From: a virus | Direction: 5' to 3' (one strand) | IMG/VR virus record: IMGVR_UViG_3300045988_136739 | DNA: 64,000 nucleotides | In this document: positions 17,625 to 54,590 of the stretch, piece by piece | Numbering within the stretch: position 1 is the first letter of the stretch | Layout: every line of letters starts with the position of its first letter | Translations under genes and position numbers: made by a program | Notes under the pieces: generated by a model | The model's input: the letters and a program-made list of their open reading frames with translations, nothing else | Database searches by the model: none | What the model was told of the DNA's origin: nothing

Positions 17625-17665
17625 ATTGGTGTAAAAGACACATATAAAGGAGTTGAAGATACTAT

Positions 17666-17781: not shown

Positions 17782-17784
17782 ATT

Positions 17785-18483: not shown

Positions 18484-18485
18484 TA

Positions 18486-18920
18486 ATGAAGGACATTAAC
18501 AAATTTCAGGATGATTGGTTCTTGGCAAAGAAGTCTCAGAATAAGCGAGTAGCTGATACACTCGGTTTTTTGTATGCGGCTATGCAAAATAAGAGAATTG
18601 AGCTTGGTAGAATGTTGACTACAGACGAAATGATTTCTGTAGTAAAAAAGCAGATTAAGCAGATTAACGAAACGCTAGAGTTCGCAATCAAGGGTGATAG
18701 GGTAGAAACTGCTGAAAAGTGTCGTGACGAATTGGCAATTTTGTCCGATTATTTGCCTGAAGAGTTGTCTTATGATGACATTATGGCGCGTGTTTCGGTA
18801 CTTGTCGATTCTAGCATGAATAAGGGACAGGCAATGAAAATTGCTATGGGTGCTTTGCGTTCTATGGCAGATGGTAAGTTGATTGCAAAAGCGGTAAGCG
18901 AGGTGCTTGCTGGTGTCTAA
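18486..18920 (+). CDS. GatB/YqeY-domain protein
   Basis: pattern of YqeY family helices (LGFLYAAMQNKRIELGR...). Confidence 0.5.
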   Translation: MKDINKFQDDWFLAKKSQNKRVADTLGFLYAAMQNKRIELGRMLTTDEMISVVKKQIKQINETLEFAIKGDRVETAEKCRDELAILSDYLPEELSYDDIMARVSVLVDSSMNKGQAMKIAMGALRSMADGKLIAKAVSEVLAGV

Positions 18921-20413: not shown

Positions 20414-21535
20414 ATGATTATTAACGGTAAACGCGCATTAGCATACGTAACTAAGATTGATGACATCGAACCGTTACAGGGATATGATAGGGTAGAGTAC
20501 GCTAGAGTAGGTGGATGGGGAGTCATTGTTTCCAAGGCTGACCAGTTTAAGTCCGGAGATAAGTGTGTTTATTTTGAGGTTGACTCTAAGGTAAATGCAG
20601 ATGACCCTCGGTTTGCTTTTATGGCAAAGCGTGACTATAAGGTTAAGTGCATTAAGATGTGCAAGGTATACTCTCAGGGCTTGATTATGCCTGTGAGTGC
20701 ATTTGATGAGTTAAAGGATGCAAATATCGGTGACGATGTTACTGATATTTTAAAGGTTCGCTATTCTGTCGAAGAGGATAACGCTCGTAAGTCGGATGTG
20801 GTTGAAAAGAAATTGACTTTCTTCGAGCGTATTAAGAATTTCTTTACTGGCAAGAAGGTAACTAATCCTCGCAAGTTCCCTACTAAGTTTGAGTACGTAA
20901 AGAAGTCGGACGAAGAGCGTGTTGAGAATATGCCATTTATTTTGAAGGACAAAGAGCCTTGGATTAAGACCCAGAAGATTGATGGAACTTCTTCTACTTA
21001 TATCATGGAAAAGAAGCCGTTTGGCCGTTGGGAATATTATGTATGTTCTCGCAATGTGCGTCAGCTTGACCGTAATCAGTTCACTTGGCACAATAAGGGC
21101 GGTAACGCTGAATCTAATGTGTACTGGGATATGAACGACAAGTATCATATTGATGAGTTCTTGAAGCGTTACATCAAGGATAATAACCTAAAGTATGCGG
21201 CATTGCAGGGTGAAACCGCTGGCCCTAATCTTCAGGGTAATCCTCACAAGTATGGTGAAGTACGTTTCTTTGGTTACAATTTGATTCGTTCTGACGTTGG
21301 GCGTATCAATTCTTTGGATGCAAAGAAGATTTGTAATGCTAATGGAATTGATTGGGTTCCTATCGCAGATGAGCATTATATCTTACCCGATGATATGGAG
21401 ACTTTAAAGCTGGATGCTGATGGTGAGTGTATTGTTGGCACTGGCTTGCGTGAAGGTTGGGTTTATCGTAGTCTTGACGGTCAGCGCTCTTTTAAGAATG
21501 TTAGCCGTAAGTATATGATGAAGCATGACGAATAA
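20414..21535 (+). CDS. ATP-dependent RNA ligase (Rnl-type nucleotidyltransferase with N-terminal extra domain)
   Basis: KIDGTS motif I (KxDG), downstream EGxxxK-like motifs, no DNA-ligase OB domain; separate DNA ligase is already present. Confidence 0.6.
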   Translation: MIINGKRALAYVTKIDDIEPLQGYDRVEYARVGGWGVIVSKADQFKSGDKCVYFEVDSKVNADDPRFAFMAKRDYKVKCIKMCKVYSQGLIMPVSAFDELKDANIGDDVTDILKVRYSVEEDNARKSDVVEKKLTFFERIKNFFTGKKVTNPRKFPTKFEYVKKSDEERVENMPFILKDKEPWIKTQKIDGTSSTYIMEKKPFGRWEYYVCSRNVRQLDRNQFTWHNKGGNAESNVYWDMNDKYHIDEFLKRYIKDNNLKYAALQGETAGPNLQGNPHKYGEVRFFGYNLIRSDVGRINSLDAKKICNANGIDWVPIADEHYILPDDMETLKLDADGECIVGTGLREGWVYRSLDGQRSFKNVSRKYMMKHDE

Positions 21536-21827: not shown

Positions 21828-22192
21828 ATAATGAAAAGTGTATGAATTGTGGAACTACAGTTGATGTTGAAGGTGTTGATATTTTGCCGCTTAAATATGG
21901 CAGTAGGTTTGATGGTTGGGGGACGAGAGTTTTTCTCTGTAAGAAATGCTTGAGCGCTAGTCCATTTGCTTCTATTGTTGCGGTAACAAACAAGGAACTT
22001 TCTGAGAGCAGTGATGCAACAGACGAAGACTTGCTTGAGTATAAGAATGAAGATGATATGTTTGATTACATCGAGTCCTTATCTCTTGAAAGTCAGGAAA
22101 AATTTTTTAACAGTAACGCTTACGGCGAGTTCTATACAAAACTGTCACCGGCTGTATGGTTGATGGCAGAAAGGAGTAGGGTAAATGGCTAA
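21824..22192 (+). CDS. hypothetical protein with N-terminal zinc ribbon (CMNCG...CKKC)
   Basis: ORF. Confidence 0.45.
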   Translation: MNNEKCMNCGTTVDVEGVDILPLKYGSRFDGWGTRVFLCKKCLSASPFASIVAVTNKELSESSDATDEDLLEYKNEDDMFDYIESLSLESQEKFFNSNAYGEFYTKLSPAVWLMAERSRVNG

Positions 22193-23027
22193 TTATCAGA
22201 AAATCTTGGAGAGATTAAATCGTAGAAAAGACTATATCGAGCTAAATAGAAAATGCAAGGTCGTATTTGTCGGCCTATTTGGTAGTCAGAATTATGGACT
22301 TGATGATAACGATTCTGACATTGATTGTGTTGTTGTTACAATGCCATCACTCGATGATTTAATTAGTGGTAAAACTGATGTAAAGACACTAACTCAATCA
22401 GAGTTCTCATCTGATTCTTCCGATGATGGTCAGGTAAAGTTGATGGATATTCGTGATTTTGCAAAACAGTTGGCAAAGGGCAGTTTTGTTAATCTTGAGG
22501 CGTTATTCTCTAATTATGTTATTGTGGATGACTCTTTTAGAGATTTTTATAATGTTAGAAATAAAATTTACGATAGATATATCTGGCATTACCAGAACGC
22601 TGTATATGGTGCTATTCACCATATCTTAAACTACTACGAGATGAACGCTTGCGCCAACGAAGAAAATAAACAGTCAAAGCGTATGTATGAAGCGTTGCGT
22701 CTGAAGAATCTTTATAATCAACTTACGGATAAGAGTGACGTAGAGTCAAATTCGCGTCCAGAATTTTATATTGCCAATTTATCTGAAAGATGTTCTATCG
22801 GGAATGTAAAGTGCGGTGTTCTTGATAGTGCACAGTTTTTTGATAATGTGAAAGATATTGAAGCGCCTAGCACAAAAGAACCAAAGGTAGCGGAGCCTTT
22901 GTGTGGATTTAACATTCAGATTTTGGCAAATCTTACCATTAAGAATAGTATAACTGGTAATTTGTACAGAAATAATTATGCTGCGAGTTCTGTAAGTTGT
23001 GCAAAAACATCATACACAACCGCTTGA
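22185..23027 (+). CDS. minimal nucleotidyltransferase (Pol-beta superfamily, GS-x9-DxD)
   Basis: GLFGSQNYGLDDNDSDIDCVVV motif. Confidence 0.55.
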   Translation: MANYQKILERLNRRKDYIELNRKCKVVFVGLFGSQNYGLDDNDSDIDCVVVTMPSLDDLISGKTDVKTLTQSEFSSDSSDDGQVKLMDIRDFAKQLAKGSFVNLEALFSNYVIVDDSFRDFYNVRNKIYDRYIWHYQNAVYGAIHHILNYYEMNACANEENKQSKRMYEALRLKNLYNQLTDKSDVESNSRPEFYIANLSERCSIGNVKCGVLDSAQFFDNVKDIEAPSTKEPKVAEPLCGFNIQILANLTIKNSITGNLYRNNYAASSVSCAKTSYTTA

Positions 23028-26458: not shown

Positions 26459-27364
26459 ATGCAGGAGTTTGTTATGTTGGTTGGACTTCCGGCAAGCGGA
26501 AAGTCTACCGTAGCGAATGAGTATATGGGAAAGGGGTATCTCATCTTTAGTTCTGATGCGATTCGCAAGGAACTTTTTGGTGACGAAAATGACCAGACTG
26601 ACAATAATCTGGTATTTAATACTCTGCATAATCGCATTCGTACTGCAATGAAAGATGGTTTTAGTGTTGTATATGATGCAACGAATATCAATGCTAAACG
26701 GCGTGAAGGATTCTTACGCGAGATAGCGAAGGTAAACTGTCATAAGCATTGCGTCTTTATGGCTACTCCGTATTCCGTCTGCGTTATGCGCAATCAGAAG
26801 CGGGAGCGGAAAGTCCCCATGTCTGCTATGGAGCGTATGCGTAAGGGAATTGATATCCCGTACTACTTCGAGGGGTGGGACGAAATCACTGTTCGGCGTG
26901 TTAAGTTGGTAGCTCCGTATGAACCGTTTGACCTTGTTGACAGCCTTCTGAATTACAATCAGGAAAATCCGCATCACGAATTTACGCTTGGCGCACACAT
27001 GAAAGAGGCGTGGCGTTACGCAGTAAACGAGGAATACGATATGTATGTTCAGTGGGCTGCTCTTGTCCATGATATTGGTAAACCGGCCACTAAGACGTTT
27101 ACTAAAATGAATGGAACAACTGATGGAAGTGCACATTATTACAGTCATCAGAATGTTGGTGCGTATGATTCTTTGTTCTTGAACTATCCGAAAGAAATTA
27201 CGGACAAAGATAAACTGCATATTGCAGTTCTTATCAACTACCACATGATTCCCTATACATTTGGCAAGGGTAATATCGGAAAAGATAAGATGCGTGAACG
27301 TCTTGGAGACGAAATCTATAACGAGGTTATGCAAGTGCATAACTGTGATGTAAACGCACATTAA
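26459..27364 (+). CDS. polynucleotide 5'-kinase domain (T4 Pnk-like) fused to a C-terminal HD phosphohydrolase domain; putative RNA end-healing enzyme
   Basis: GLPASGKST, SSDAIRKEL, DATN co-linear with T4 Pnk kinase; HHEF...HDIGKP...H...D HD signature like CCA-enzyme HD domain. Confidence 0.7.
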   Translation: MQEFVMLVGLPASGKSTVANEYMGKGYLIFSSDAIRKELFGDENDQTDNNLVFNTLHNRIRTAMKDGFSVVYDATNINAKRREGFLREIAKVNCHKHCVFMATPYSVCVMRNQKRERKVPMSAMERMRKGIDIPYYFEGWDEITVRRVKLVAPYEPFDLVDSLLNYNQENPHHEFTLGAHMKEAWRYAVNEEYDMYVQWAALVHDIGKPATKTFTKMNGTTDGSAHYYSHQNVGAYDSLFLNYPKEITDKDKLHIAVLINYHMIPYTFGKGNIGKDKMRERLGDEIYNEVMQVHNCDVNAH

Positions 27365-29685: not shown

Positions 29686-31185
29686 ATGGCAAATTTTGCA
29701 AATGCAGTTCGTGAATCTGCACGAATGACTACTACCGCAAATGGAGCAAAGTGCTACAATACCACTGGTAGCAAGATGCTCGACCTGTTTTCTACCGCTG
29801 GCGGTATGCGCACTCGAATCAACGATGTTCGTGATGCGTTCTCTGCGGCATGGAACGAGAATCCTGAGCTGGCAATTAAGCTGGCTTTCTATTGTCGTGA
29901 CGTGAGAGGTGGACAGGGTGAACGTGACGTTGCACGTGAGATGCTTCGCTGGGTTGCAGAATATCATCCTTCTACTATGCGTAAGAATTTGAAGTTCTTA
30001 CCTGAGTATGGTCGCTGGGACGATATTTACGTCTTTGTTGGCACTAAGGTCGAGAATGACGTATGGCAGATGGTTCGTGAACAGTTTGCCGAGGACATCA
30101 AGAATGTTAATTCTGGCAAGTCCTGTTCTCTGATGGCTAAGTGGCTGAAGTCAGTCAACACCTCTTCTAAGAAGTCTGTTGAACTTGGTCGTTTGACTGC
30201 TCGTAAGCTGGGGCTGTCTTATATGCAGTACCAGAAAACTTTGGCTAAACTGCGTAAGTACATTAACGTGACCGAGGTTAATATGTCTGCAAACAAGTGG
30301 ACTGATATTAACTACGAGGCCGTCCCTTCTAAGGCAATGACCAACTATCGTAGCGCATTCGCTCGTCACGACCGCGAAGGATTTACCGACTATATCAACG
30401 CTGTTAAGGCTGGAGAAAAGACTATTAAATCTAACACTCTGTATCCTTATGACCTTGTGCATCGGTACATGGGCGGTGGTGGCATGGTTTCCTATCGTTC
30501 CGGTTACTACAACTGCGGTGGTCTGGCAGACAAGGAAGATGCTGTTGTTGAAGCACAGTGGAAGGCATTGCCCAACTACATTGATGGAAACCATAACGTG
30601 ATGGTTATGGCAGATACATCCGGTTCTATGCGCGGTCAGCCCATTGAGTCTGCGCTTGGTCTTGCAATGTATTTTGCAGAGCGCAATAGCGGCCCTTATA
30701 AGAATCTGTTTATGACCTTTAGTACCAATCCTTGTTATGTTACTCTGGATGAACAGAGTATGCTTGGCAATCTGAAGAAGGCCGCAAAAGCCAACTGGAT
30801 GGGTTCTACCAACCTTGAAGCAGCTTTTGTTAAGATTCTCAAGACTGCTACTGACAACCATCTGACCGATGATGAGTTGCCCAAGGCACTTGTTATTATC
30901 TCGGATATGCAGTTCAATAAGTCGTTGATTCAGGGGGACAACTACTTCGACTCTATGAAGAATATGTATGCCGCACATGGTTATACGCTCCCCCATGTCG
31001 TGTTCTGGTGCGTAAATGCTTGGGCTGGTTCTACTCACCACAATAACTATAACGACTATGTTACTGCATTTAGCGGTAATGCCGCAAGCACTTTCCGTGA
31101 TGTTCTCGGAACTATCGGTTATAATGCTTACGAGGCTATGCTGAAGGTTCTGAATGGTGAGCGTTATGCGCAGATTCATGCCTAA
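29686..31185 (+). CDS. TROVE/Ro60-like protein with C-terminal vWA domain
   Basis: 499 aa; N-terminal LDLFSTAGGMR (Ro60-like LxxGxxGG), C-terminal VMVMADTSGSM MIDAS; architecture of Ro60/Rsr. Confidence 0.5.
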   Translation: MANFANAVRESARMTTTANGAKCYNTTGSKMLDLFSTAGGMRTRINDVRDAFSAAWNENPELAIKLAFYCRDVRGGQGERDVAREMLRWVAEYHPSTMRKNLKFLPEYGRWDDIYVFVGTKVENDVWQMVREQFAEDIKNVNSGKSCSLMAKWLKSVNTSSKKSVELGRLTARKLGLSYMQYQKTLAKLRKYINVTEVNMSANKWTDINYEAVPSKAMTNYRSAFARHDREGFTDYINAVKAGEKTIKSNTLYPYDLVHRYMGGGGMVSYRSGYYNCGGLADKEDAVVEAQWKALPNYIDGNHNVMVMADTSGSMRGQPIESALGLAMYFAERNSGPYKNLFMTFSTNPCYVTLDEQSMLGNLKKAAKANWMGSTNLEAAFVKILKTATDNHLTDDELPKALVIISDMQFNKSLIQGDNYFDSMKNMYAAHGYTLPHVVFWCVNAWAGSTHHNNYNDYVTAFSGNAASTFRDVLGTIGYNAYEAMLKVLNGERYAQIHA

Positions 31186-31195
31186 TGTTTGACTA

Positions 31196-31228
31196 AACGG
31201 TGGCAATGCCGCCACCGTTAATTTTTAA
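31196..31228 (+). terminator. terminator hairpin aacggtggcaatgccgccaccgtt
   Basis: 10-bp stem, A/T tail. Confidence 0.45.
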
Positions 31229-31243
31229 TCTAAAGGAGAAAGT

Positions 31244-32776
31244 ATGGTTAATCTTTTAGCATTTGTTCCTATTGTCGCAATTATCGCTGTAATTGCATTG
31301 ATTGTTATTGTTTTTAAGTCTTGCTATAAGAAAGCACCGCCTAATAAAGCGATGGTCATTACTGGGCCGTCTGGTAGCAAGACTGTTCATGGCAAGGCTT
31401 GTTTCGTCATTCCGCTGATTCAGCGTGTTGATTATATGTCCTTGGAGAATATTCAGGTAGACTTTACGTCTCGTGATGAGATTCCCACTAAGGACGCTAT
31501 CAATATCAATGTTGATGCGGTTGCTAATATGGCCATTGACACCGACCCGGAGCGTATGGCGGTTGCCGCATCTAAGTTTCTTGGATATTCTATCGCAGAC
31601 ATCCAGACGATTGTTCAGCCTATTTTGGAAGGTAACATCCGCGAAATTATTTCTCAGACTACTCTGAAGGAACTGATTCAGGGAGACAAGAAACAGTTTG
31701 CTGAGAAGGTCATGGAGAATGTCGCCCCAAACCTCGCAGACCTCGGTTTGAAGCTGACTACGTTTAACATCCAGAACTTTAAGGATAGAAACGGTGTGAT
31801 TGAGAATCTGGGCATTGAGAATACTGTCCAGATTTCCAAGGACGCTAAGAAAGCACAGGCACAGGCAAAGGCTGAAATTGCCATTGCAGAAGCAGAAAGC
31901 GCACGTGCCGCAAATGAAGCACAGGTTGTAGCCGATGCTGAAATCGCTCAGAAGCAGAACGAACTGGCTATTAAGAAAGCACAGTTGAAGAAGGTAACAG
32001 AAGTTGAACAGGCTCGTGCCGATGCCGCTCGTGGAATTGAAGCAGAAGAGCAGCGTAAGGCGCAGGAAATTGCAACTGCAAACGCCAACCTTGCTCGTCA
32101 GGAAAAGGAAATTGAACTGAAGGAACGTGAGGTTGCCATTAAGGAAAAGTCTCTGGAGGCAGAGGTTAAAAAGACCGCAGAAGCAAAGCGTTACGCAGAC
32201 CAGCAGGCCGCAGATGCGCATTTGTATACTGTACAGCGTCAGTCCGAGGCTTCACTGTTCGACCGTCAGAAGAAGGCAGAAGCAGAGAAGGTTGAGGCTA
32301 CCCAGAGGGCGGAAGCTGAAAAGATTACCTCTGAGGCAAAGCGTATTGCCGCAGAAAACGAAGCCGCTGGTATCAAGGCAAAAGGCGTTGCAGAAGCAGA
32401 AGCTATTCGCGCAAAGGCACTGGCAGAAGCAGAAGGTACTCTGAAAAAGGCAGAAGCTATGCGTGAGTACGGCGATGCCGCAACTATGGACATGAAGCTG
32501 GCTGTTGCCAAGGCTTATATCGACAAGTTGCCTGATATTGCCGCCGCAGTTGCCGCGCCTATGGCAAATATTGGCAATATCACTATGTATGGCGAGGGTA
32601 ACACCGCAAAGCTGACTGGTGACGTTACCAAGACCATGAAGCAGATTACCGATGGCTTTACTGATGCTACTGGTTTCAACCCTATGATGCTGTTGTCTGG
32701 CGTTCTGGGTGGTAAGCTGGCCGCATCCAACAGCGGTTCTACCGTAAACGTCCATGTTGACGGTGATAATCAGTAA
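31244..32776 (+). CDS. flotillin-like SPFH/band-7 protein with N-terminal TM helix and long EA-repeat coiled coil
   Basis: TM helix, SPFH core, about 200 aa of AEAEA/KAQAQAKAE repeats typical of flotillins. Confidence 0.65.
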   Translation: MVNLLAFVPIVAIIAVIALIVIVFKSCYKKAPPNKAMVITGPSGSKTVHGKACFVIPLIQRVDYMSLENIQVDFTSRDEIPTKDAININVDAVANMAIDTDPERMAVAASKFLGYSIADIQTIVQPILEGNIREIISQTTLKELIQGDKKQFAEKVMENVAPNLADLGLKLTTFNIQNFKDRNGVIENLGIENTVQISKDAKKAQAQAKAEIAIAEAESARAANEAQVVADAEIAQKQNELAIKKAQLKKVTEVEQARADAARGIEAEEQRKAQEIATANANLARQEKEIELKEREVAIKEKSLEAEVKKTAEAKRYADQQAADAHLYTVQRQSEASLFDRQKKAEAEKVEATQRAEAEKITSEAKRIAAENEAAGIKAKGVAEAEAIRAKALAEAEGTLKKAEAMREYGDAATMDMKLAVAKAYIDKLPDIAAAVAAPMANIGNITMYGEGNTAKLTGDVTKTMKQITDGFTDATGFNPMMLLSGVLGGKLAASNSGSTVNVHVDGDNQ

Positions 32777-32820: not shown

Positions 32821-32916
32821 ATGGGGTATTAGTCTAACTGGATAAAACATCACTCTCCTAAAGTGAATTTCTCCGTTCGAGTCGGGGATGCCCCACCAAA
32901 ATTTTTTCAAAACCAC

Positions 32917-32945
32917 TTGACAAATCGCAAAAAGTATGATAGAAT
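32917..32945 (+). promoter_or_regulatory. AAAACCACTTGACA-17-TAGAAT class promoter
   Basis: consensus family. Confidence 0.6.
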
Positions 32946-32983
32946 ATAGGTGTTCCAAGGGGAACAGAAAGAAGGTATATTAC

Positions 32984-33196
32984 ATGAAATGTGACGCTGT
33001 AAAAGTACACGAGTCGATTCCTATGACACCGAAACGTCTTTATGAGTGGGCTGTTGCAAACGGGGTACAGGATTGCCAGATGTATTTCCCAGCAGATGAG
33101 TTTATGACCGATGTTGACTTGACAATGGATTGTATGTGCAAAGAATATCGTGGTTTTGGTAAGAACAAGGAAATGGTAGTTAATATCTGTAGGTGA
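32984..33196 (+). CDS. hypothetical small Cys-rich protein
   Basis: ATG 32984 with GAAAGAAGG RBS. Confidence 0.45.
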   Translation: MKCDAVKVHESIPMTPKRLYEWAVANGVQDCQMYFPADEFMTDVDLTMDCMCKEYRGFGKNKEMVVNICR

Positions 33197-33203
33197 TTGT
33201 ACG

Positions 33204-33497
33204 ATGGTTTTTGTCTATGAGCTGAAATACGTTGATAAACGCAAATTAGTTCCAGTCACAGAGAGTCCGAAGATGAGGACAATCGCTACGGTGATTAACA
33301 AAGTCACTGGAAACGATGTTAAACGTCTGTATAATCGATTGAAGCGAAGTGGCAATATGCCACAGATGGAGCATCTAAAAGATGGGAACTACCGTGTTAT
33401 GTATATGGCACTGCCTAATGGGTTGAAGTTTGACCCATTCTATAAAGGTGGAACATATTACAGAGGAAGGAGCGTATTTGACCGTGATGACACTTGA
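33204..33497 (+). CDS. hypothetical protein
   Basis: ORF. Confidence 0.45.
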   Translation: MVFVYELKYVDKRKLVPVTESPKMRTIATVINKVTGNDVKRLYNRLKRSGNMPQMEHLKDGNYRVMYMALPNGLKFDPFYKGGTYYRGRSVFDRDDT

Positions 33498-34272
33498 TGA
33501 TAGAATGAAAACTTATTATGAGGGTGCATATCGTGTTTATCTGACGCGGCGTATGCCAGTCATTATCCGAATCGACTCTCGTGCTGGGCATACTTTCACA
33601 AAGAGTCTGAAGAAGCCTTTTGACGTAGTTTTCACTTCAACAATGCAGGATACAATGAAGTATCTGTGTGAAAACATTCAAGGCTGCGTTATCGGCTATA
33701 CACAGTCTGACGAGATTACTTTGTGTCTTGTTGATTATGACAAGCTGGAAACCGATGCTTGGTTTGGTTATAATCTAAACAAGCTGGTAAGTCTTACTGC
33801 ATCAATGGCTACGTTAGCATTTAATAAGTATTTTGAACGCAATGCTAATAGAACCCTCACCAAGATGGCATTGTCCTCTGGTGTGAATAAGTTTGAAATT
33901 GACGCTTACTCTGCTACATTGGCAAAGTGTAAAGAAAAGGGTTTGTGCTTCGATTCTCGCGCCTTTAATATCCCAAAGGAAGAGGTATGTAACTGTTTCT
34001 TATGGAGACAGCTTGACGCTTCTCGAAACAGTATTCAGGCGGTCGGTCAGGCAAACTTCTCGCATACTGTTCTGAATGGCAAGAGTACGTCTGAAATTCA
34101 GGATATGTTGATGACAGAAAAGGGTATCAACTGGAACGACCTTGCGACTGAATTAAAACGTGGCTCTTGCTGTGTACGAGATGGTAATGGCTGGTCTATT
34201 GACCACGAGATTCCCAAGTTTACTGGCGAAGGCCGTGACTATATTGATAAGCTGGTTTTTGTTGGAGAATAA
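33487..34272 (+). CDS. Thg1-like protein (tRNA-His guanylyltransferase family; 3'-5' nucleotidyltransferase / tRNA 5'-end repair)
   Basis: VIIRIDSRAGHTFTK (Thg1 VRIDGRxFHxF motif) and GYTQSDEITL (catalytic SDE) motifs. Confidence 0.8.
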   Translation: MTLDDRMKTYYEGAYRVYLTRRMPVIIRIDSRAGHTFTKSLKKPFDVVFTSTMQDTMKYLCENIQGCVIGYTQSDEITLCLVDYDKLETDAWFGYNLNKLVSLTASMATLAFNKYFERNANRTLTKMALSSGVNKFEIDAYSATLAKCKEKGLCFDSRAFNIPKEEVCNCFLWRQLDASRNSIQAVGQANFSHTVLNGKSTSEIQDMLMTEKGINWNDLATELKRGSCCVRDGNGWSIDHEIPKFTGEGRDYIDKLVFVGE

Positions 34273-34273
34273 A

Positions 34274-34474
34274 ATGCCTAAATATAGTTTTGATTTTAGG
34301 TACGCATACGGAAGTTGGACATTATGTAATTTGCGTTATGAGCATTATGACATTGATGCCCCTTCTGAAAAGGAAGCATTTAAAATCGCAGAAAAACAGT
34401 TCAATGAAACGCATAAATCTGCAATATGTGACCTCTATCGTGATAGTGATGGATGGCATAAACTTCTTTGGTGA
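34274..34474 (+). CDS. hypothetical small protein
   Basis: ATG immediately after upstream TAA. Confidence 0.4.
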   Translation: MPKYSFDFRYAYGSWTLCNLRYEHYDIDAPSEKEAFKIAEKQFNETHKSAICDLYRDSDGWHKLLW

Positions 34475-34749
34475 GTATGAACATTAACATTCCGTTTTCT
34501 TGCGGCGATGTTGTGTACGCTGTAAGACCTAAAAATATGTATAACAAGGAAGCCTATATTTATAAAGGCATTGTTATTTATATTAAAGTCGAGGTTGACC
34601 GTGACAATAAAGCTAAAATTATGGCGCACGTTCGTGACCTCGATGAGACTTTAAGCGTACCTAACATTATCTATCAGAACAGTGACAGTATCTACGCCAC
34701 TCTGGATGAAGCTAGGTCAGCTAATCCAGATGTTCTGATAAAAATTTAA
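34468..34749 (+). CDS. hypothetical small protein
   Basis: ORF. Confidence 0.4.
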   Translation: MVSMNINIPFSCGDVVYAVRPKNMYNKEAYIYKGIVIYIKVEVDRDNKAKIMAHVRDLDETLSVPNIIYQNSDSIYATLDEARSANPDVLIKI

Positions 34750-34768
34750 AAAATTTTTCCAAAACCCC

Positions 34769-34797
34769 TTGACAAATGACGAAAAATTTGATATAAT
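34769..34797 (+). promoter_or_regulatory. AAAACCCCTTGACA-17-TATAAT promoter driving the tRNA cluster
   Basis: perfect consensus 35 nt before first tRNA. Confidence 0.7.
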
Positions 34798-34832
34798 AAG
34801 GGTGTCAAGAGGAACGAAAGTTCCTCAAATAT

Positions 34833-34905
34833 ACGTTGGTAGTTTAACGGTAAAACAATGGCCTCCAAAGCCAGAAGATGATGGGTTCAAATCCCTCCCG
34901 GCGTG
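34833..34905 (+). tRNA. tRNA-Trp (anticodon CCA)
   Basis: hand-folded cloverleaf: acceptor acgttgg/ccggcgt (2 GU), D-stem gttt/aaac, anticodon loop ctCCAaa; weak T-stem. Confidence 0.55.
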
Positions 34906-34912
34906 TTTATAT

Positions 34913-34987
34913 GCGCTTATCGTTCAATGGATAGGACAAAACTCTTCTAAAGTTTTTATGTGGGTTCAATTCCTACTAGGCGTACCA
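34913..34987 (+). tRNA. tRNA-Arg (anticodon TCT), CCA encoded
   Basis: acceptor gcgctta/taggcgt, anticodon stem aaact/agttt, loop ctTCTaa, T-arm gtggg-ttcaatt-cctac. Confidence 0.75.
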
Positions 34988-34988
34988 C

Positions 34989-35074
34989 AGACGCATACAG
35001 CAATCCATAAATTTTAATGGTTTAAAAAGAATGCTTAAAACAATCTTTCACGGTTCGATTCCGTTCTGCGTCTA
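34989..35074 (+). tRNA. aberrant tRNA-like gene (perfect 7-bp acceptor agacgca/tgcgtct, T-arm, anticodon-like hairpin with loop ctTAAaa) with non-canonical spacing
   Basis: 86 nt; D-arm-like ccat-aaatttta-atgg displaced by extra nucleotides. Confidence 0.3.
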
Positions 35075-35151
35075 ATTTTTAGTTATTCTTCATCTTTATC
35101 TGAACTCGATAGACACGAACAGCAACACTTTCTTTGTTCGCGCCACTAATT

Positions 35152-35223
35152 GCGAATATAGTTTAGATGGTTAGAACGCCACACCAAAATGTGGAGACGT
35201 GGGTTCGAGTCCCACTTATAGTT
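35152..35223 (+). tRNA. tRNA-like element with canonical D-arm and T-arm but 6-nt anticodon loop and poorly paired acceptor (possible pseudo-tRNA)
   Basis: tagtttagatggttagaac D-arm, gtggg-ttcgagt-cccac T-arm, ccaca-ccaaaa-tgtgg. Confidence 0.3.
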
Positions 35224-35234
35224 GTGTCTAATAT

Positions 35235-35307
35235 GCCCGGTTAGTCAAGTTGGCTAAGACGAGTGACTCTCAATCACTAGGCGGCAGTTCAATCCTGCCA
35301 CCGGGTA
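35235..35307 (+). tRNA. tRNA-Glu (anticodon CTC)
   Basis: acceptor gcccggt/accgggt, anticodon stem agtga/tcact, loop ctCTCaa, T-arm ggcag-ttcaatc-ctgcc. Confidence 0.7.
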
Positions 35308-35313
35308 CTTTAT

Positions 35314-35345
35314 GGTCGAGTAGCTCAGTTGGTTAGAGCAGTAGA
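35314..35345 (+). pseudogene. 5' tRNA fragment (acceptor strand + perfect D-arm tagctcagttggttagagc) lacking a 3' half
   Basis: no matching ctcgacc acceptor strand found downstream; abuts endonuclease gene. Confidence 0.45.
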
Positions 35346-35376
35346 TAAATGGGGTATGAATATGGTAAATTCAAAG

Positions 35377-36114
35377 ATGAAAGGCAATATTGCAGAGTCG
35401 CGTATTTTATATGAATTTGTTTAGAGAGGAATACCAGTTTCAATACCTTACGGCGATAATGAACGCTATGATATGATAGCGGAATTTAATGGAAAGCTGA
35501 ATAAGATACAGATAAAGTTCTGCAATCAACAAATAGTTGATGGTTCGATAAGCTGTCCATGTTCTAATATAGTAAATCCATTAACAAAAAGTAAGCATAG
35601 AGAATTATATGTTAATGATGTTGATTATATGGCATTTTACATATATGTATGGGATGTTGCTGTTATAATTCCAACAAGTTACATAGGGAATAGGATTCAG
35701 ATAAAGATTAGAAAAGAACGTGCAAAGAACAATCAAACTACAGCTTCTACATTTGTTGATGACTTTACTTTTGATAAAATTGTTGGAGTAGATGTTCGTA
35801 ATGTGATAGAAGAACAACAAAATGTATATGAAAAAGCATATAATAGATGTGTTGATTGCGGATGTGCCATATCGGATAGGGCTGTGAGATGTTTAAGGTG
35901 TAGAAATTTGAAGCAATATGAAGAAACAGCAAATCCGAATATGATAGATAGAGACACGCTTAAATCCATGATTAGAAATATGCCATTTAAGCATATCGCA
36001 TCTATATGTGGAGTTTCAGATAACTGTATTAGAAATTGGTGTAAAAGATATAATCTTCCATATCGTACATCTGACATTAAGAAATATACAGATGACGAGT
36101 GGAGTGATGTATAA
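35377..36114 (+). CDS. putative PD-(D/E)XK-type (Hjc-like) endonuclease with C-terminal Cys cluster/HTH, possible homing endonuclease; in-frame TAG at 35422-35424
   Basis: N-terminal domain GNIAESRILYEFV-[TAG]-RGIPVSIPYGDNERYDMIAEFNGKLNKIQIK continuous across the TAG; CVDCGC...CLRC; inserted inside tRNA cluster. Confidence 0.5.
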
Positions 36115-36222
36115 TTTTTAGCTAATTACAAAAACAATATCCTACTGACATAATAATACCCATTTTTTCGGTTTGGATAACAGCGCATAGCCATAAAAGT
36201 CTAGGATTATTGGATAAGCTAA

Positions 36223-36251
36223 CAATGACTGCTGGAAAGACAGCAATTTAT
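36223..36251 (+). repeat. 25-nt exact repeat atgactgctggaaagacagcaatttat (hairpin tgctg-gaaaga-cagca) immediately upstream of a tRNA; second copy at 37843-37870
   Basis: identical sequence before tRNA-Arg(ACG) and tRNA-Ile(GAT). Confidence 0.6.
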
Positions 36252-36253
36252 AT

Positions 36254-36330
36254 GCGGCAGTAGTTCAACTGGATAGAACAATCGGCTACGAACCGATAGG
36301 TTGCGAGTTCGAGTCTTGTCTGTCGTACCA
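36254..36330 (+). tRNA. tRNA-Arg (anticodon ACG), CCA encoded
   Basis: acceptor gcggcag/ctgtcgt (2 GU), D gttc/gaac, anticodon stem atcgg/ccgat, loop ctACGaa. Confidence 0.8.
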
Positions 36331-36452
36331 GATAAGTGAGTCTTAAATTACGTTGGACAAAGGGTAGCCTTTTATGGGAGACTGTTACGACAGTAACCCC
36401 GATTATCGGTGACAATGCTAACTCATAAGAGTGCGTAAGCCGACATTTATAT

Positions 36453-36538
36453 GTGTATGTATCCGAATTGGCATAGGAGCTGCTTTGAGATGGCAGTGTC
36501 GCAAGACATTGTGGGTTCAAGTCCCACCATGCACACCA
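36453..36538 (+). tRNA. tRNA-Leu (anticodon GAG), type II with long variable arm, CCA encoded
   Basis: acceptor gtgtatg/catgcac, loop ttGAGat, variable hairpin tgtc-gcaa-gaca, T-arm gtggg-ttcaagt-cccac. Confidence 0.7.
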
Positions 36539-36541
36539 GAA

Positions 36542-36662
36542 TACAGTATGGTTTCAATGGTAAAACATCACCCAAATAAGAATGTGTCTATATAGACATA
36601 AGCCGCAATTATTTTTCTTAAAAGCCAAGGTGAAGATGTCGGTTCGACCCCGACTGCTGTAT
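36542..36662 (+). ncRNA. tRNA-like gene with about 50-nt expansion of the anticodon loop
   Basis: acceptor tacagta/tgctgta, D-arm gttt-caatggta-aaac, anticodon-type stem tcacc/ggtga enclosing a 56-nt loop with the palindrome tgtctatatagaca, perfect T-arm gtcgg-ttcgacc-ccgac. Confidence 0.4.
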
Positions 36663-36669
36663 TTATTAT

Positions 36670-36745
36670 GCGAGATTAACTCAACTGGAAGAGTGCCACT
36701 CTTACAAAGTGGAAGGTACAAGTTCGAGTCTTGTATTTCGCACCA
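36670..36745 (+). tRNA. tRNA-Val (anticodon TAC), CCA encoded
   Basis: acceptor gcgagat/atttcgc, D actc/gagt, stem ccact/agtgg, loop ctTACaa, T-arm acaag-ttcgagt-cttgt. Confidence 0.8.
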
Positions 36746-36833
36746 TACGACAGTTTATAAGCAAAACAAGTTCTGTCGGTGATAAGACAAAAGACTTAAT
36801 TGGCGGTTGAGTGACCTTAAACTCACCATTATG

Positions 36834-36949
36834 GCTGTGTAGCTCAATAGGCTAGAGCGCGTAAAACCTATCTATTTTAGATAGTAACAGCTACACATTT
36901 TTCCATTATAAGGACGAGGTTTATGGTTCGAGTCCATACGCAGCCACCA
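36834..36949 (+). ncRNA. tRNA-like gene (acceptor, D-arm, T-arm, CCA) with about 40-nt insertion in the anticodon/variable region
   Basis: acceptor ggctgtg/cgcagcc, D-arm tagctcaataggctagagc, T-arm tatgg-ttcgagt-ccata, internal hairpin ctatc-tatttta-gatag; no canonical anticodon arm. Confidence 0.4.
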
Positions 36950-36970
36950 AAAATCTAAAAAAGAAGGGAA

Positions 36971-37243
36971 ATGAATCCGATGCAGTAGATTGATAATAAT
37001 AATCCTATGGTTTTCTTTCAAATGTTGGGTGAAGTTGCCGGTGATAACATCATGAGCAAGATTTCCCGACTAAAGATTAGTGAAGAAAATGGAATTGTTA
37101 CTTTATATCTAAGAGATGAACGTGAACCGTTTAACGATAGTGAACTTAGACAGCTAAGATACATCTTAGAAAGATGGTATGATATAATTTCTTTTAGGCG
37201 TGAAGATAGGCTTACTATGTTAGATATGAAGGTAAGAAAATAA
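36971..37243 (+). CDS. small hypothetical protein with in-frame TAG at 36986-36988
   Basis: AGAAGGG RBS + ATG 36971, 5 codons, TAG, then continuous with ORF 37007..37243. Confidence 0.35.
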
Positions 37244-37341
37244 CCCTCCTTTATTTTTATATATAAAAAGACACATCCAGCAAACTTTTATTAAATTTTG
37301 AGTAGCCTTATGATTCAATTTTTAATGTGTCTTTTAGATTT

Positions 37342-37429
37342 GCCAGTGTAGTTCAGTTGGTAGAACGCGGGTTTTGTAATCCCGATGCCGAAAGGGTTCT
37401 CGCAGGTTCAAGTCCTGTCACTGGCTCCA
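37342..37429 (+). tRNA. tRNA with long variable arm; anticodon ambiguous (TGT or GTA within ttttgtaat loop)
   Basis: perfect acceptor gccagtg/cactggc, D gttc/gaac, 4-bp anticodon stem cggg/cccg, 17-nt variable arm, T-arm gcagg-ttcaagt-cctgt, CCA. Confidence 0.55.
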
Positions 37430-37430
37430 T

Positions 37431-37506
37431 GCCACTTTAATTCAGTAGATAGAATGATGCGTTCGTACCGCATACGTCGTAGGTTTAATTCCTACAGGTG
37501 GCTCCA
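37431..37506 (+). tRNA. tRNA-Thr (anticodon CGT), CCA encoded
   Basis: acceptor gccactt/aggtggc, stem atgcg/cgcat, loop ttCGTac, T-arm gtagg-tttaatt-cctac. Confidence 0.75.
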
Positions 37507-37644
37507 ATCGCACCTATACCGTGGTAGAATAGGTATAGGCAAGTATTTTAACTACCGTGTCCATAGAGTTAATGGACTTGGGAGGTACTGACAAGACAGA
37601 AGAGCAAGTACCATGCACGTGGGCGGGTATTCGTGCTTTCATTT

Positions 37645-48200: not shown

Positions 48201-48406
48201 TGAAACAGCGTGAATCTGTTGAGCCTTGGGGCGTTATCATTGATGCGCAGTCCATTGGTTCTGGTAAGCGTAGTTCTTATACAGTTCCTTACAAACTGTA
48301 TAAGAAATGCAAGTTCAATAAGAATGATGTAATTAAGATTCGTGATTGGTATAAGAACAAGCGTGGTTACTTCTATATTACTGATTATGAATTTGTGGTT
48401 ATGTAA
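45215..48406 (+). CDS. dnaE: DNA polymerase III alpha subunit (DnaE-type, PHP domain N-terminus)
   Basis: HLHTMLSNAV...FSEHGN PHP motifs; 1063 aa co-linear with DnaE. Confidence 0.9.
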   Translation: MANYTVYHLHTMLSNAVTNIDSVTTYKQYIEKAKACGMTAMAFSEHGNIFEWVHKKDAIEAAGMKYIHAMEAYLTERIPDEGEEKIRDNYHCVLIARNWEGVKELNVLQGKAFNRVDGHYYYAPRITFAELFSTSNNIIITTACVASALCRGTESAKESYLRFLTRHKDRCFLEVQHHNTQKQFEYNRYLANLSKETGLRLIAGTDTHCLNAEHELGRSALQRGKGVFFDDEVGWDLTWKTYDELVEAYRTQDALSEEEYMSAINNTNVMADMIETFELDRSFKYAKIYDDGEKVLREKLFAPETIEPIIKEGFSREEVTARLEQEIDTFKALNATDFILLEDHIVRWEHSHDMWQGPARGSAASSLALYALGVTEVNPLKYGFYFWRFMDKSKYSLADVDMDNSAKDRDKLKFWMLNDHLDLPNVKTCEIITFNTIALKGAIRDIGRGLDMPLDEVDTIAKAVHEVAVDEEKIVTIDDSWRKKYPELFKYVDIVIGTIVSIGSHPSGVVVSDHDIESEFGLCYLKDDPYPVSCINMKELDSLNFTKQDALGLDNVGIINETCKLAGIERLSPKTIDFEDDAVWNSIKEDTSLIFQMNSNYGQRTVDKMLSPEVYNKIKKQIPNMTRLDLLTFINALIRPCGKGVYDDATNGIVSKTGIKEIDNLLGSSMGYAIMQEPQMAFVQEFCGYDFLRADKLRKIIGKKLGTRDQLPIIKEGWEKNAKVKYHLTDEQSDKIINPFLQCILDATRYSFSLVHSLSYSCISYECAYLRYHYPLQYLTSCLNAWNGDDNKTAEAIEYANSRKVKILAPKFRHAKAEYFYDLATNSIYKGTSSIKGLNAGYSDFLYSLKDNTYKTFTDLLYDIQASGMPRDQVETLIKLDYFEEFGTCRELVTIFKQFQFFKKGEAKTIAKSKIPDEITMNIIKRNANETEKQFNKLNCHNILNEIEQYIMTMNLGDVDIKTKIANQLEYMGYIGIKTDKSEDRPKIVILEMKVMKQRESVEPWGVIIDAQSIGSGKRSSYTVPYKLYKKCKFNKNDVIKIRDWYKNKRGYFYITDYEFVVM

Positions 48407-52646: not shown

Positions 52647-52836
52647 TCAGCTCGTTTTAGATTTGGCAAACGAGTCGGAAGATACGCTGTATTTTATGTT
52701 CAGAAATTCTATTCGTCAGATTAAATTCACAAATCCTTATGAAAATGATTATCACTACGTTGTCGCGCGACATAACGCAATTTGTGAGGCGTTTAAGAAA
52801 AAAACTGGACATAACATTTTGGAGGACTTTTGCTGA
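52627..52836 (+). CDS. hypothetical protein
   Basis: ATG overlapping upstream gene. Confidence 0.4.
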   Translation: MTETEYNQLVLDLANESEDTLYFMFRNSIRQIKFTNPYENDYHYVVARHNAICEAFKKKTGHNILEDFC

Positions 52837-53498
52837 TGATTAACGTAGGAAATGATTGGCAACCGTTCTTTGACACAGAACAGCAAAAACCATTTTATAA
52901 GAATCTAAAGAGATTTCTTGCACAGGAATATGCGACAAAGACGATATATCCACCGATGCAAGACATTTTTAAGGCGTTTGAATTAACGCCTATACATAAT
53001 ACAAAAGTGGTAATAATCGGTCAAGATTGTTACCACGGCGAAGGACAAGCTATGGGATTGTCATTTTCTGTAAGAAATGGTGTATACCCAACACCGCCAT
53101 CTTTGAAGAATATCCAAAAGGAACTCAATTCAGAGACTGTTGAGCGTAGTGAATGGTCGCAAGATTTGACAAGGTGGGCAGAACAAGGTGTATTGCTGTT
53201 AAACACGATTCTTACAGTTAGACAGCACGAACCTCTTTCACACGCAAATCAGGGTTGGGAAATACTGACCGATGACGCAATTAAAGAGCTAGAGAAATAT
53301 GACCAACCTATCATTTACTTATTATGGGGCAAGAATGCCGGGTCTAAAAAGAATCTAATTACAAATCAAAATCATAAATTCCTAGAATCTGCGCATCCGT
53401 CACCGCTAAGTGCAAACCGTGGCTTCTTTGGTAACGGTCACTTCGCAAAAGCGAATAAGTTTTTGATTGAGAATGGCTTAGAGCCAGTAAGGTGGTAA
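52830..53498 (+). CDS. ung: uracil-DNA glycosylase (family 1)
   Basis: GQDCYHGEGQAMGLSFSV and HPSPLS motifs. Confidence 0.85.
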   Translation: MLMINVGNDWQPFFDTEQQKPFYKNLKRFLAQEYATKTIYPPMQDIFKAFELTPIHNTKVVIIGQDCYHGEGQAMGLSFSVRNGVYPTPPSLKNIQKELNSETVERSEWSQDLTRWAEQGVLLLNTILTVRQHEPLSHANQGWEILTDDAIKELEKYDQPIIYLLWGKNAGSKKNLITNQNHKFLESAHPSPLSANRGFFGNGHFAKANKFLIENGLEPVRW

Positions 53499-53502: not shown

Positions 53503-54018
53503 ATGAAGTATATGGGAAGCAAGGCAAGAATTGCAAAAGACATTTGCCCGATTATTCAGTCGTTTATTGACAAGAGTGGCGCATACGTGTATATCGAAGG
53601 ATTCGTTGGCGGCGCAAACGTAATTGATAAAATCAACTGCGATATACGTCATGGAATTGATAAGAATAAATATCTTATTGCACTTTTGAAATATGTTGCC
53701 AATGGTGGCGAATTACTTGGTAGAGTGTCTAAAGATACGTATACTGAAGTAAAACAGAATAAAGATAATTACCCGGACTGGCTTGTTGGTAATGTTGGAT
53801 TTCTTGCATCTTACAACGGTAAGTTCTTTGATGGCGGTTATGCAAACACCGTAATTGAGCATACTAAATACGGTGATAAAGTCCGTGACTATTATCAAGA
53901 AGGAAAGAGAAATCTTGAACAGCAAGCACCGAATCTAAAGGATGTTATCTTTACGTCAGGTGATTTTCTCGAATTATGGAAGAGCTTCGGTGGTCAAAAG
54001 GAAGTAGTTTTTTATTAA
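53503..54018 (+). pseudogene. N-terminal two-thirds of a second Dam-like DNA adenine methyltransferase, truncated exactly at motif IV (ends ...VVFY)
   Basis: KYMGSKARIA motif I; ends where paralog 39932 has VVYLDPPY. Confidence 0.7.
54003..54016. repeat. left 14-bp inverted repeat agtagttttttatt
   Basis: perfect inverse of 54257-54270. Confidence 0.85.
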
Positions 54019-54256
54019 ATATACTCCAAAGCTTTACCAATTACAAATAGCTTCTCGGTAGGATATTCACGACCAGTTGCGCTGATTGTTCTTGCAACTT
54101 TCTTTTCCCAAATACAAGTAAAATCATCTGGCATCCATTGTTCACTAACGATGACGATGTTGTTCTTACTAAGTTCCCTGCAAATATCATAGAATTTATC
54201 GTAATCAAATCCCTTTGATACATCATACTTTGTGGTATTTAAGTAAGGAATATCAA
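54017..54256 (-). mobile_element. 240-bp invertible segment encoding, on the minus strand, the C-terminal third of the Dam-like MTase (FDIPYLNTTKYDVSKGF...KLFVIGKALEYI)
   Basis: reverse complement translates to the homolog of the Dam 39932 C-terminus; inversion fuses in-frame to 53503..54016. Confidence 0.7.
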
Positions 54257-54270
54257 AATAAAAAACTACT
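54257..54270. repeat. right 14-bp inverted repeat aataaaaaactact
   Basis: perfect inverse of 54003-54016. Confidence 0.85.
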
Positions 54271-54290
54271 ATTATTAAAGGAGTAAAAAT

Positions 54291-54590
54291 ATGGACGATT
54301 TTGAAAAGAAGATGCTATCTAAGATTGATAGCGGTGAGTCACTTACAAGTAACGAGTTAAGTAAACTTGTATATGATTATGACATCGACACGCAGGAAGG
54401 TGACGATGGACGATGGGTAAGAGGAATGTATACAGTTGTTGAACTCGGTGAGCGATACTTTGGAATTGATTGGTTTAAGGGTTTAACAGAGTGTCAGGAG
54501 AACGAATTTGATTTTCAGCCAGAAGAGGTTGAGAGACACGAGAAGGTAATTACCGTTACAGAGTGGTTGCCTATTAAGAGAGGTAATTGA
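54291..54590 (+). CDS. hypothetical protein
   Basis: ORF with AAAGGAG RBS. Confidence 0.5.
   Translation: MDDFEKKMLSKIDSGESLTSNELSKLVYDYDIDTQEGDDGRWVRGMYTVVELGERYFGIDWFKGLTECQENEFDFQPEEVERHEKVITVTEWLPIKRGN

Follow-up and report, generated by a model that had tools for sequence, protein, structure and literature searches.

The 64,000-nucleotide (nt) stretch of viral DNA analysed here (IMG/VR record IMGVR_UViG_3300045988_136739, referred to below as the window) very probably carries, inside a phage DNA methyltransferase gene at positions 53503-54290, a real phase-variation switch that works by recurrent inversion. In natural populations, a segment of 240 base pairs (bp) would be flipped back and forth, time and again, by recombination between two arms of 14 bp. 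When the segment is ON, it carries the reading frame on through the left arm to give a methyltransferase of 251 amino acids (aa), with the stop codon finished by the right arm. In the OFF orientation, the frame meets a TAA right after the left arm and yields a product of 171 aa. A preliminary description of the window, made from the letters alone, had proposed an invertible ON/OFF switch that is OFF in this genome, and the comparison reported below bears the proposal out, with ON and OFF forms both common and interleaved among near-identical genomes.

The preliminary description proved accurate in most details of the locus (Table 1). It had reported perfect 14-bp inverted repeats, a plus-strand open reading frame (ORF) ending in KEVVFY and the missing C-terminus on the opposite strand. 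The repeats match exactly, the adjoining bases being unpaired on both sides so that the repeat measures 14 bp and no more; the ORF codes for 171 aa terminating in KEVVFY; and the minus strand of 54015-54254 encodes DIPYLNTT...GKALEYI followed by a stop. Reverse complementing 54017-54256 in silico gave one continuous ORF, and thus the claimed in-frame fusion stood, its length being 251 aa rather than the estimated 248 aa or so. The ON junction reads TAT T/TT GAT ATT (Y-F-D-I; the slash marks the boundary of the segment), where the junction codon T/TT encodes Phe, and for the ON stop codon TAA the segment supplies the T, its last base, and the right arm the AA with which it begins. The OFF stop codon, also TAA, joins the T that ends the left arm to the AA of the flipped segment end. 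Because it sits immediately after the arm, the truncated product bears no aberrant tail. The 171 aa of the OFF form are identical to the first 171 aa of an intact 251-aa protein (P0124), and in the OFF orientation the catalytic half is located on the antisense strand with no start codon of its own. The element is not a strictly intragenic inverton, which in the sense of Chanin et al. has both repeats inside one gene: apart from the last two bases of the stop codon, with which it begins, the right arm lies in intergenic sequence, and this places the element in the "partial intergenic" type.

BLAST comparison of the 43.5-64 kb part of the window with ON relatives identified a sole inverted high-scoring segment pair (HSP), at 54003-54270, which is 268 nt long (14+240+14) and 100% identical in locus L090 (loci and contigs are given by L numbers, proteins by P numbers). 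In 13 relatives, compared over 20 kb, there was no other inverted HSP. With a 50-1000 bp spacer, a perfect 14-bp inverted repeat is not unusual by chance in this AT-rich window (0.375 expected per window; at least one in 22% of windows simulated with a Markov model), so that the repeat alone is not significant, and arm-like sites elsewhere in the window (up to two mismatches) did not exceed the chance count. The weight of the argument rests instead on the coincidence of the repeat with the breakpoints, together with the comparative evidence.

Neither the locus nor 25 kb of the window had a close relative by megablast among 50,697 phage records, and the comparison therefore relied on metagenome assemblies. 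A search covering 5.8 billion proteins recovered a full-length form (P0001, 251 aa, 98% identity, in a cluster of 124 distinct sequences), a second full-length form of 250 aa (P0002) and the split form (P0006, 171 aa, in a cluster of 45, and P0007); members of 250 aa and of 170/171 aa stood side by side in the cluster of a lineage at 88-89% identity. Orientation was read from the junctions in fetched DNA rather than from protein lengths. By this approach 21 loci were verified as ON and 10 as OFF with both arms and an intact 240-bp segment, while eight listed contigs and about 16 similar unlisted ones stop at the switch. The uninterrupted gene that the preliminary description had advised looking for in related genomes thus exists at the 21 ON loci, and both arms were intact, in either orientation, in all complete loci. 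A pattern search for the ON junction retrieved four IMG/VR contigs. Two candidates for the OFF state were rejected: L088, an apparent OFF-junction match, was an unrelated chance match, and the 171-aa proteins of L109-L112 were gene calls cut by a contig end exactly at the arm. The test of interleaving was confined to loci whose state could be read from DNA, with the L109-L112 type left out.

Six ON/OFF protein pairs shared an identical N-terminal 171 aa. At the DNA level, 4/7 OFF loci had a near-identical ON partner (0-0.32% divergence over 2,180 nt of flanking DNA). The window and the ON locus L090 differed by 0.32% in the flanks and had identical segments; L104 (OFF) and L102 (ON) showed a divergence of 0.000, with no difference in 2,180 + 240 nt; and the pairs L103 (OFF)/L096 (ON) and L105 (OFF)/L012 (ON) each diverged by 0.05% in the flanks. 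For these four paired loci, the nearest other OFF locus was 1-4% away. L002/L004 and L006 had no close ON partner, the nearest ON loci being 3.4% and 17.8% away, respectively. Fitch parsimony required at least six changes of orientation on a 25-locus tree, and both states were present in two deep lineages.

Some 30 loci, among them lineages at 82-87% DNA identity and lineages that differ at 42-62% of synonymous sites in the segment, show no variation in the arms. Where the arms have changed, both have done so: those of L267/L268, a lineage at 78% identity, are AATAGTTTTTTATT and AATAAAAAACTATT, and those of L271 are AGCAGTTTTTTATT and AATAAAAAACTGCT, where the left-arm change costs a Val-to-Ala replacement. 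There are, accordingly, three arm alleles (AGTAG.../...CTACT, AATAG.../...CTATT and AGCAG.../...CTGCT), each 14/14 complementary, and two independent compensatory double changes; the positions concerned are neighbours, the second and third counted from the flank. The L271 allele probably still flips, judging from its sister contig L272, which breaks 30 nt past the arm start. The homologues L269 and L270 (71% and 62% identity) contain no repeat of 8 bp or longer and use other synonymous codons for the V-F-Y-F residues; absence of the repeat from these next homologues out indicates that the switch is a derived feature of one clade.

The segment was always 240 bp long, and its 80-codon frame was intact in 10/10 OFF loci. 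The ratio of nonsynonymous to synonymous polymorphism (pN/pS) in the segment was 0.025-0.04 at pS 0.42-0.62, and about 0.03 even between OFF loci, at pS 0.58. These values point to strong purifying selection on the flipped segment, which is not decaying. The repeats are maintained by selection or by the recombination process itself.

Assembly breaks at the locus carried a further signature of the two orientations. L109-L112 and about six similar contigs from Logan and ENA end at the last base of the left arm; L003, L005, L272 and about ten similar contigs end 30 nt after the first base of an arm; and L108 ends 55 nt after it. Logan assembles with k = 31, so that the +30 end equals k-1, and the end of L108 would fit a k = 55 assembly if such assembler settings are assumed. 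In all, about 24 contigs end at these exact points (arm end, +30, +55), which are the de Bruijn branch points of an inversion polymorphism, where the left flank and its arm can run into either end of the segment and a segment end with its arm can come after either flank. To these is added one hairpin contig from a Hadza sample, L007, which runs from the left flank through arm, segment and arm into the reverse complement of the left flank (62/62 nt). This path needs both left-flank junctions, indicating that both were present in the sample. L007 is the same sequence as L197, ENA ERZ4561606 NODE_49819 and GenBank CAKUYO010000214.1, a 2,169-bp hairpin chimera binned in a "Bacteroidales" metagenome-assembled genome (MAG) that serves as a GTDB species representative; CAKUYO010000214.1 is a misassembly, and probably a case of mis-binning, in the public record.

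The reconstructed 251-aa protein matched the Pfam family PF02086 with 31.1 bits (cut-off 22; E = 2.6e-7; residues 3-200), and its N-terminal 171 aa on their own with 25.3 bits (residues 3-88). It is co-linear over its full length with about 230 phage methyltransferases at 40-48% identity, and is 47% identical to the D12 methyltransferase of Roseburia phage Shimadzu. The motifs follow in the order FVGGANV (motif I, residues 34-40) and D-I-P-Y (motif IV, residues 173-176). D173, P175 and Y176 are invariant in 40 homologues and G36 and F34/G37 are invariant or nearly so, while the second position of motif IV is Ile here versus the consensus Pro (DPPY in most homologues). An AlphaFold model of P0001, a natural protein 98% identical to the reconstructed one, was obtained with 40 homologues at a mean predicted local distance difference test (pLDDT) score of 90.5 and a predicted template modelling (pTM) score of 0.88. 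A PDB search with the methyltransferase sequence returned no match. In the fold search, the top 19 PDB matches were E. coli Dam, T4 Dam, DpnM and Mcbe1 (E 1e-8 to 1e-6, template modelling score 0.5-0.6, 14-19% identity), and the next class of matches appeared at E > 1e-4. The ON protein is thus a predicted D12-class N6-adenine DNA methyltransferase of the Dam fold family. Residues 172-251, encoded by the segment, comprise the catalytic D-I-P-Y loop and the last three strands of the Rossmann core (beta-5 to beta-7). The 171-aa OFF product retains motif I together with the recognition region and is devoid of motif IV and of beta-5 to beta-7; from established knowledge of the family, it is predicted to be incapable of catalysis. 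A second D12-class methyltransferase, of 229 aa with a canonical DPPY and an uninterrupted gene at 39932-40621, has no inverted repeats around it. The co-linearity with this Dam homologue that had been pointed out earlier was recovered at 37% identity over 243 aa, and by sequence the phage appears to possess one constitutive and one switchable methyltransferase paralogue.

The label "Dam-like" given in the preliminary description held for the fold and the family; the GATC specificity that it suggests found no support, as the window has no GATC site and such specificity is not readable from sequence at 14-19% identity. About 220-240 sites would be expected in 64 kb. GATC was likewise absent from about 200 kb of close relatives (L001, L002, L006, L089-L093, L117, L120, L131) and from L269 and L270; more distant relatives, L129 and L173, have 38-46 sites per 20 kb, and for the next most avoided 4-bp palindromes the observed/expected ratio was only 0.6-0.7. 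This absence implies very strong selection by GATC-directed nucleases of the host, and the phage escapes such enzymes by having no sites. In the absence of sites neither D12 methyltransferase protects GATC on phage DNA, and GATC is almost certainly not the target of the switchable enzyme there.

Several observations weigh against the switch reading. The left arm has just four synonymous sites, its invariance being modestly above background, and the right arm lies in an invariant ribosome-binding block. Mixture of the two states within one clonal population is deduced from contig ends and one chimeric contig, a signal that co-existing strains would mimic. A GATC-specific enzyme would find nothing to protect on the DNA of this phage. 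Finally, no serine or tyrosine recombinase was detected with Pfam or PHROGs among window ORFs of at least ~130-150 aa, in keeping with the earlier remark that no invertase gene is visible in the window, or with Pfam, PHROGs and precomputed annotation in L092, L274, L089-L091, L120 and L273. The search beyond the window, which had been recommended at the outset, added about 48 kb of a relative's genome and also returned no invertase, bringing the coverage to about 112 of ~150 kb; the precomputed annotation of the relatives covers the window-equivalent 43-73 kb. Walking on the 149.8-kb record IMGVR_UViG_3300045988_127389 (L120) took in 20 kb leftward, with small ORFs, a RepL-like protein and an amidoligase-like protein, and 20 kb rightward, with an endolysin, a reverse transcriptase and DUF6273 protein, and then tape-measure, minor tail and fibre genes. 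The remaining ~38 kb of the genome probably consists of head and packaging genes plus about 7 kb.

As to the mechanism of flipping, crossover sites in the Hin/Gin/Cin systems are dyad-symmetric and 26 bp long, and their enhancer is bound by Fis. Both the serine and the tyrosine recombinase families require identity between the partner sites at the crossover region, the sequence being otherwise free. A Hin/Gin/Cin-type system was not found at the switch, where there is no adjacent invertase gene and the 240-bp segment is too small to contain one, and no dyad symmetry of the arm with its outer flanks was found. Two apparent resemblances are mentioned as remarks, both in AT-rich, low-complexity sequence and with no statistical support: that of the inner 11 nt of the arm, AGTTTTTTATT, to hix/gix half-sites, judged by eye against the hix half-site GGTTTTTGATAA, and a possible 9-8-9 dyad at the ON right junction. 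We lean slightly towards a conservative site-specific recombinase that acts in trans and is encoded by the host or in the remaining ~38 kb of the phage genome. Such an enzyme is favoured because the flips outpace point mutation on only 14 bp of identity, because a longer, 20-bp perfect repeat pair in the window (1328/2825) showed no inversion in the two available relatives, and because the co-varying arm positions are adjacent and flank-proximal, where identity between partners is required. There is also a precedent in Clostridia, where one master recombinase, RecV, flips distant switches without a neighbouring recombinase gene (PMC5903667).

The most serious competitor, to which we assign a minor but appreciable probability, accepts that flipping is real and dispenses with the recombinase: the 14-bp arms would be a hotspot for short-homology recombination or replication template switching, and the inversion may be a tolerated mutational polymorphism rather than an evolved switch. 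This would agree with the lack of a recombinase gene in about 112 kb and of clear dyad symmetry past the 14 bp. The phage encodes a Sak4-like AAA_24 ATPase (40689-41696) and a PD-(D/E)XK/Cas4-like nuclease (42510-43199), host RecA is also conceivable, and in the course of homologous exchange the arms would be kept identical, and made to co-vary, by gene conversion alone. However, 14 bp is very short for efficient homologous exchange, yet ON and OFF genomes were found at flank divergences of 0-0.05%, and the 20-bp repeats have stayed uninverted, although only two relatives inform on this point. The arms and the clean stop design have been kept at pS of about 0.5 and the repeat is absent from the next-closest homologues, to which a selected device is the better fit.

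Explanations that deny ongoing inversion fared worse. Two old, stable alleles could have been shuffled by homologous recombination during co-infection, since inter-genome recombination might in principle interleave the states on the tree and mixed samples might just hold two strains; we regard this as very improbable. The segment sequence tracks its flanks and not its orientation, which effectively rules out such alleles: the partners in the pairs L104/L102 and window/L090 are identical or nearly so across both flanks and segment, there is no allele-specific divergence, both states were seen in at least four sub-lineages as well as in the 88% lineage, and every arm allele has its own matched pair. 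Even less credence is due to a one-off inversion that killed the second methyltransferase and became fixed as a pseudogene. The gene is indeed split in the window, and with an intact paralogue at 39932-40621 its loss would be tolerable, but the intact frames in the OFF loci, the low pN/pS between OFF genomes, the ON state of the nearest relative of the window and the number of independent orientation changes are all contrary to decay. Similarly, we consider an artefact of assembly or sequencing, by which the segment would be oriented arbitrarily between the repeats or joined through chimeric reads, to be extremely unlikely. Assemblers are confused by repeats and L007/L197 is clearly a hairpin chimera, but the arms are shorter than k (31 in Logan and probably at least 55 in SPAdes-type ENA assemblies), so that every junction in a contig must have been spanned by real reads; both orientations occurred in dozens of independent samples, studies and assemblers, in contigs of up to 158 kb; and a real mixture would be expected to yield just such broken and hairpin contigs. 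A single orientation throughout, a split gene in all relatives or imperfect repeats unable to restore the frame, which the preliminary description had named as outcomes unfavourable to a switch, were not found.

For a recurrently flipping switch, bet-hedging is the most economical purpose. A burst would mix methylated and unmethylated progeny, of which the methylated would survive enzymes that cut unmethylated DNA and the unmethylated would survive enzymes that cut methylated DNA. The mark guards against methylation-sensitive enzymes at the price of making the DNA vulnerable to methylation-dependent ones, and progeny of both kinds would suit both types of host. Possible alternative functions are a role for the truncated product, which would bind SAM and DNA, methylation of host DNA, and a weak orientation-dependent promoter facing the downstream gene only in the ON state. 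The last was considered from one weak sigma-70-like match (Table 1), which in OFF points antisense into the methyltransferase; such matches were not above the chance count, and no promoter or terminator effect on the downstream gene is relied on here.

The phage is uncultured, comes from the human gut, has a genome of ~110-150 kb and probably infects a Bacillota bacterium. A RepL-like protein is encoded about 4 kb to the left of the window (PF05732, E = 5e-13; L092 14349-14876); RepL being a plasmid replication protein of Firmicutes, this speaks for a Bacillota host and is a hint of a plasmid-like or carrier state. A Bacteroidales host was rejected, as the sole match in 185,579 species genomes was the 2.2-kb hairpin contig in the MAG described above, which is not trustworthy. 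We tentatively picture a large gut phage, probably virulent, which might flip the segment at such a high frequency that every burst mixes methylated and unmethylated genomes and which could thereby persist across hosts with methylation-sensitive or methylation-dependent restriction, the catalyst being either a borrowed host recombinase or a compact mechanism free of any recombinase.

Table 1. Coordinates of the methyltransferase switch, its flanks and associated features (window positions unless stated otherwise)
Feature	Position	Strand	Remarks
Uracil-DNA glycosylase gene	52830..53498	+	PF03167 in precomputed annotation of all relatives; fixed left flank
Methyltransferase N-terminal part (OFF reading)	53503..54018	+	171 codons + TAA; motif I FVGGANV; target-recognition region
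Left arm, agtagttttttatt	54003-54016	+	Inside coding sequence, codons E-V-V-F-Y
14-mer of left arm, AGTAGTTTTTTATT	54003-54016		Inside ORF 53503-54018
Invertible 240-bp segment, OFF orientation here	54017..54256	-	Residues 172-251 on minus strand
Sigma-70-like match TTGTAA-17-TATATT, 9/12 (not relied on)	54018-54046	-	Plus strand in ON, e.g. L090 1959-1987
Right arm, aataaaaaactact	54257-54270	+	Exact reverse complement of left arm
Right arm, AATAAAAAACTACT	54257-54270		First two bases finish TAA stop of intact gene in ON
Invariant spacer ATTATTAAAGGAG (ribosome-binding region) and downstream 99-aa gene (54291-54590)	54271..54590	+	Fixed right flank
tRNA/RNA repair kit genes	18450-18920, 20414-21535, 22185-23027, 26459-27364, 33430-34272		

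Both flanks of the switch are stable. The stop codon of the uracil-DNA glycosylase gene lies 4 nt ahead of the methyltransferase start codon, and the two genes are probably in one transcription unit. On the right, ATTATTAAAGGA forms an invariant block across the relatives, in all of which an equivalent of the downstream gene at 54291-54590 is called.

Elsewhere in the phage genome, two families of repeats were noted. The small-ORF region at 800-4500 holds at least 15 copies, in both orientations, of the near-palindrome TTCATATC(AAG/CTT)GATATGAA (for example at 839, 906, 951, 1328-1347, 1377, 1422, 2264, 2310, 2825-2844 and 3263), which looks like a repeated operator/promoter element of an early-gene region. 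Hairpin units of the form GTTAGTTAG-n-CTAACTAAC lie between small genes at 2047-2084, 2743-2775, 4293-4393 and 6381-6425 and may be terminators or regulatory hairpins. Thirteen tRNA genes, with no suppressor among them, are clustered at 32823-38362, and the repair kit listed in Table 1 comprises a Thg1-like tRNA-His guanylyltransferase, an RNA ligase, an RlaP-type nucleotidyltransferase, an AAA_33+HD kinase/phosphatase-like protein and a tRNA amidotransferase-like protein; a CCA-adding enzyme is found just past the window (L089 15356-16822). The tRNA cluster and repair kit suggest a defence against host anticodon nucleases.

The gene for the DnaE-type polymerase (45215-48406) is polymorphic for mobile insertions: it codes for 1063 aa in the window and for 1482 aa with an intein (Intein_splicing + LAGLIDADG) in L002/L003 (L002 1-3971), and is split into ORFs of 552, 278 and 511 aa in L001 (359-4904). 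An intein is also present in the ThyX gene of the more distant L270. About 20 kb to the right of the window end in L120, near the endolysin and tail genes, a reverse transcriptase (RVT_1, phrog_1423) adjoins a 402-aa DUF6273/Hoc-like protein (15204-18295), a pair that looks like a diversity-generating retroelement and, as such, a second diversification device of the phage. Unusual phage cargo is encoded at 29686-32776, namely a DUF2828/DUF7788 and VWA protein (499 aa) and, after it, an SPFH/Band-7 flotillin-like protein (510 aa); another Band-7 gene occurs about 9 kb past the window end (L091 19457-20311).

Among phage systems, the closest in logic are the G segment of Mu, inverted by Gin, and the C segment of P1, inverted by Cin. 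These serine-invertase switches are 3-4 kb long, exchange alternative tail-fibre ends to change the host range, and adjoin their own invertase gene with its enhancer. The methyltransferase switch resembles them as a phage-borne inversion that alters the C-terminal part of a gene, with mixed progeny and bet-hedging as the presumed shared logic, and differs in its 240-bp size, its methyltransferase target, its ON/OFF outcome and the absence of a detected invertase gene. In size (about 150-300 bp), repeat length (9-21 bp) and ON/OFF outcome it is similar to the fimS (FimB/FimE) and RecV switches (PMC5903667), which, however, flip promoters or leaders of bacterial operons, whereas here the inverted DNA is coding sequence in a virus; no likeness between the arms and known target sites was established.

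Gene-altering programmed inversions, or "partial intergenic" invertons, are established in bacteria (Milman et al. 2023, PMC9881135; Chanin et al. 2023/2024, doi 10.1101/2023.03.11.532203), and inverton-like rearrangement of methyltransferase gene fragments has been described in gut bacteria (Ni et al. 2025, PMC11741434). As in bacterial invertons, the short repeats of the phage element are placed one inside the gene and one just outside, the flip alters what is encoded, and populations contain the two states together. The bacterial elements, too, favour restriction-modification and methyltransferase genes. They are chromosomal, usually swap C-terminal or specificity modules with a silent pseudogene copy and often have a recombinase nearby, in contrast to an orphan Type II-like methyltransferase in a phage genome, turned purely ON or OFF by detachment of its catalytic half, with no recombinase in the neighbourhood. 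A comparable logic underlies the phasevarions, in which mod genes vary through simple-sequence repeats, and the Type I hsdS "epigenetic invertons" (PMC7394358, PMC7672463), where a stochastic, heritable and reversible change in a methyltransferase likewise generates epigenetically distinct subpopulations. Phasevarions switch by repeat slippage and hsdS by multi-repeat shuffling with an adjacent recombinase and a change of specificity, and both are cellular.

The literature searched, whose coverage was incomplete, contained no description of a phage methyltransferase switched by inversion. For the reading of public assemblies, the result means that methyltransferase genes that look split or "truncated" at this locus, like the contig breaks found there, are a biological signal rather than errors. 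The missing recombinase raises the question whether a host enzyme works on viral DNA or whether flipping proceeds on 14-bp arms without a dedicated enzyme, and the locus is unusually amenable to testing, being a 268-bp element in a phage common in public human-gut metagenomes. If the switch is what it appears to be, a virus would for the first time be seen to have a phase-variable DNA-modification gene, as a phage-side counterpart of bacterial phasevarions. A phage toggling its own anti-restriction methylase would join the phase variation of methyltransferases with the tail-fibre inversions of phages, and would mean that phages are at times worse off with the methyl mark than without it, as when they face methylation-dependent nucleases, and that they hedge against this.

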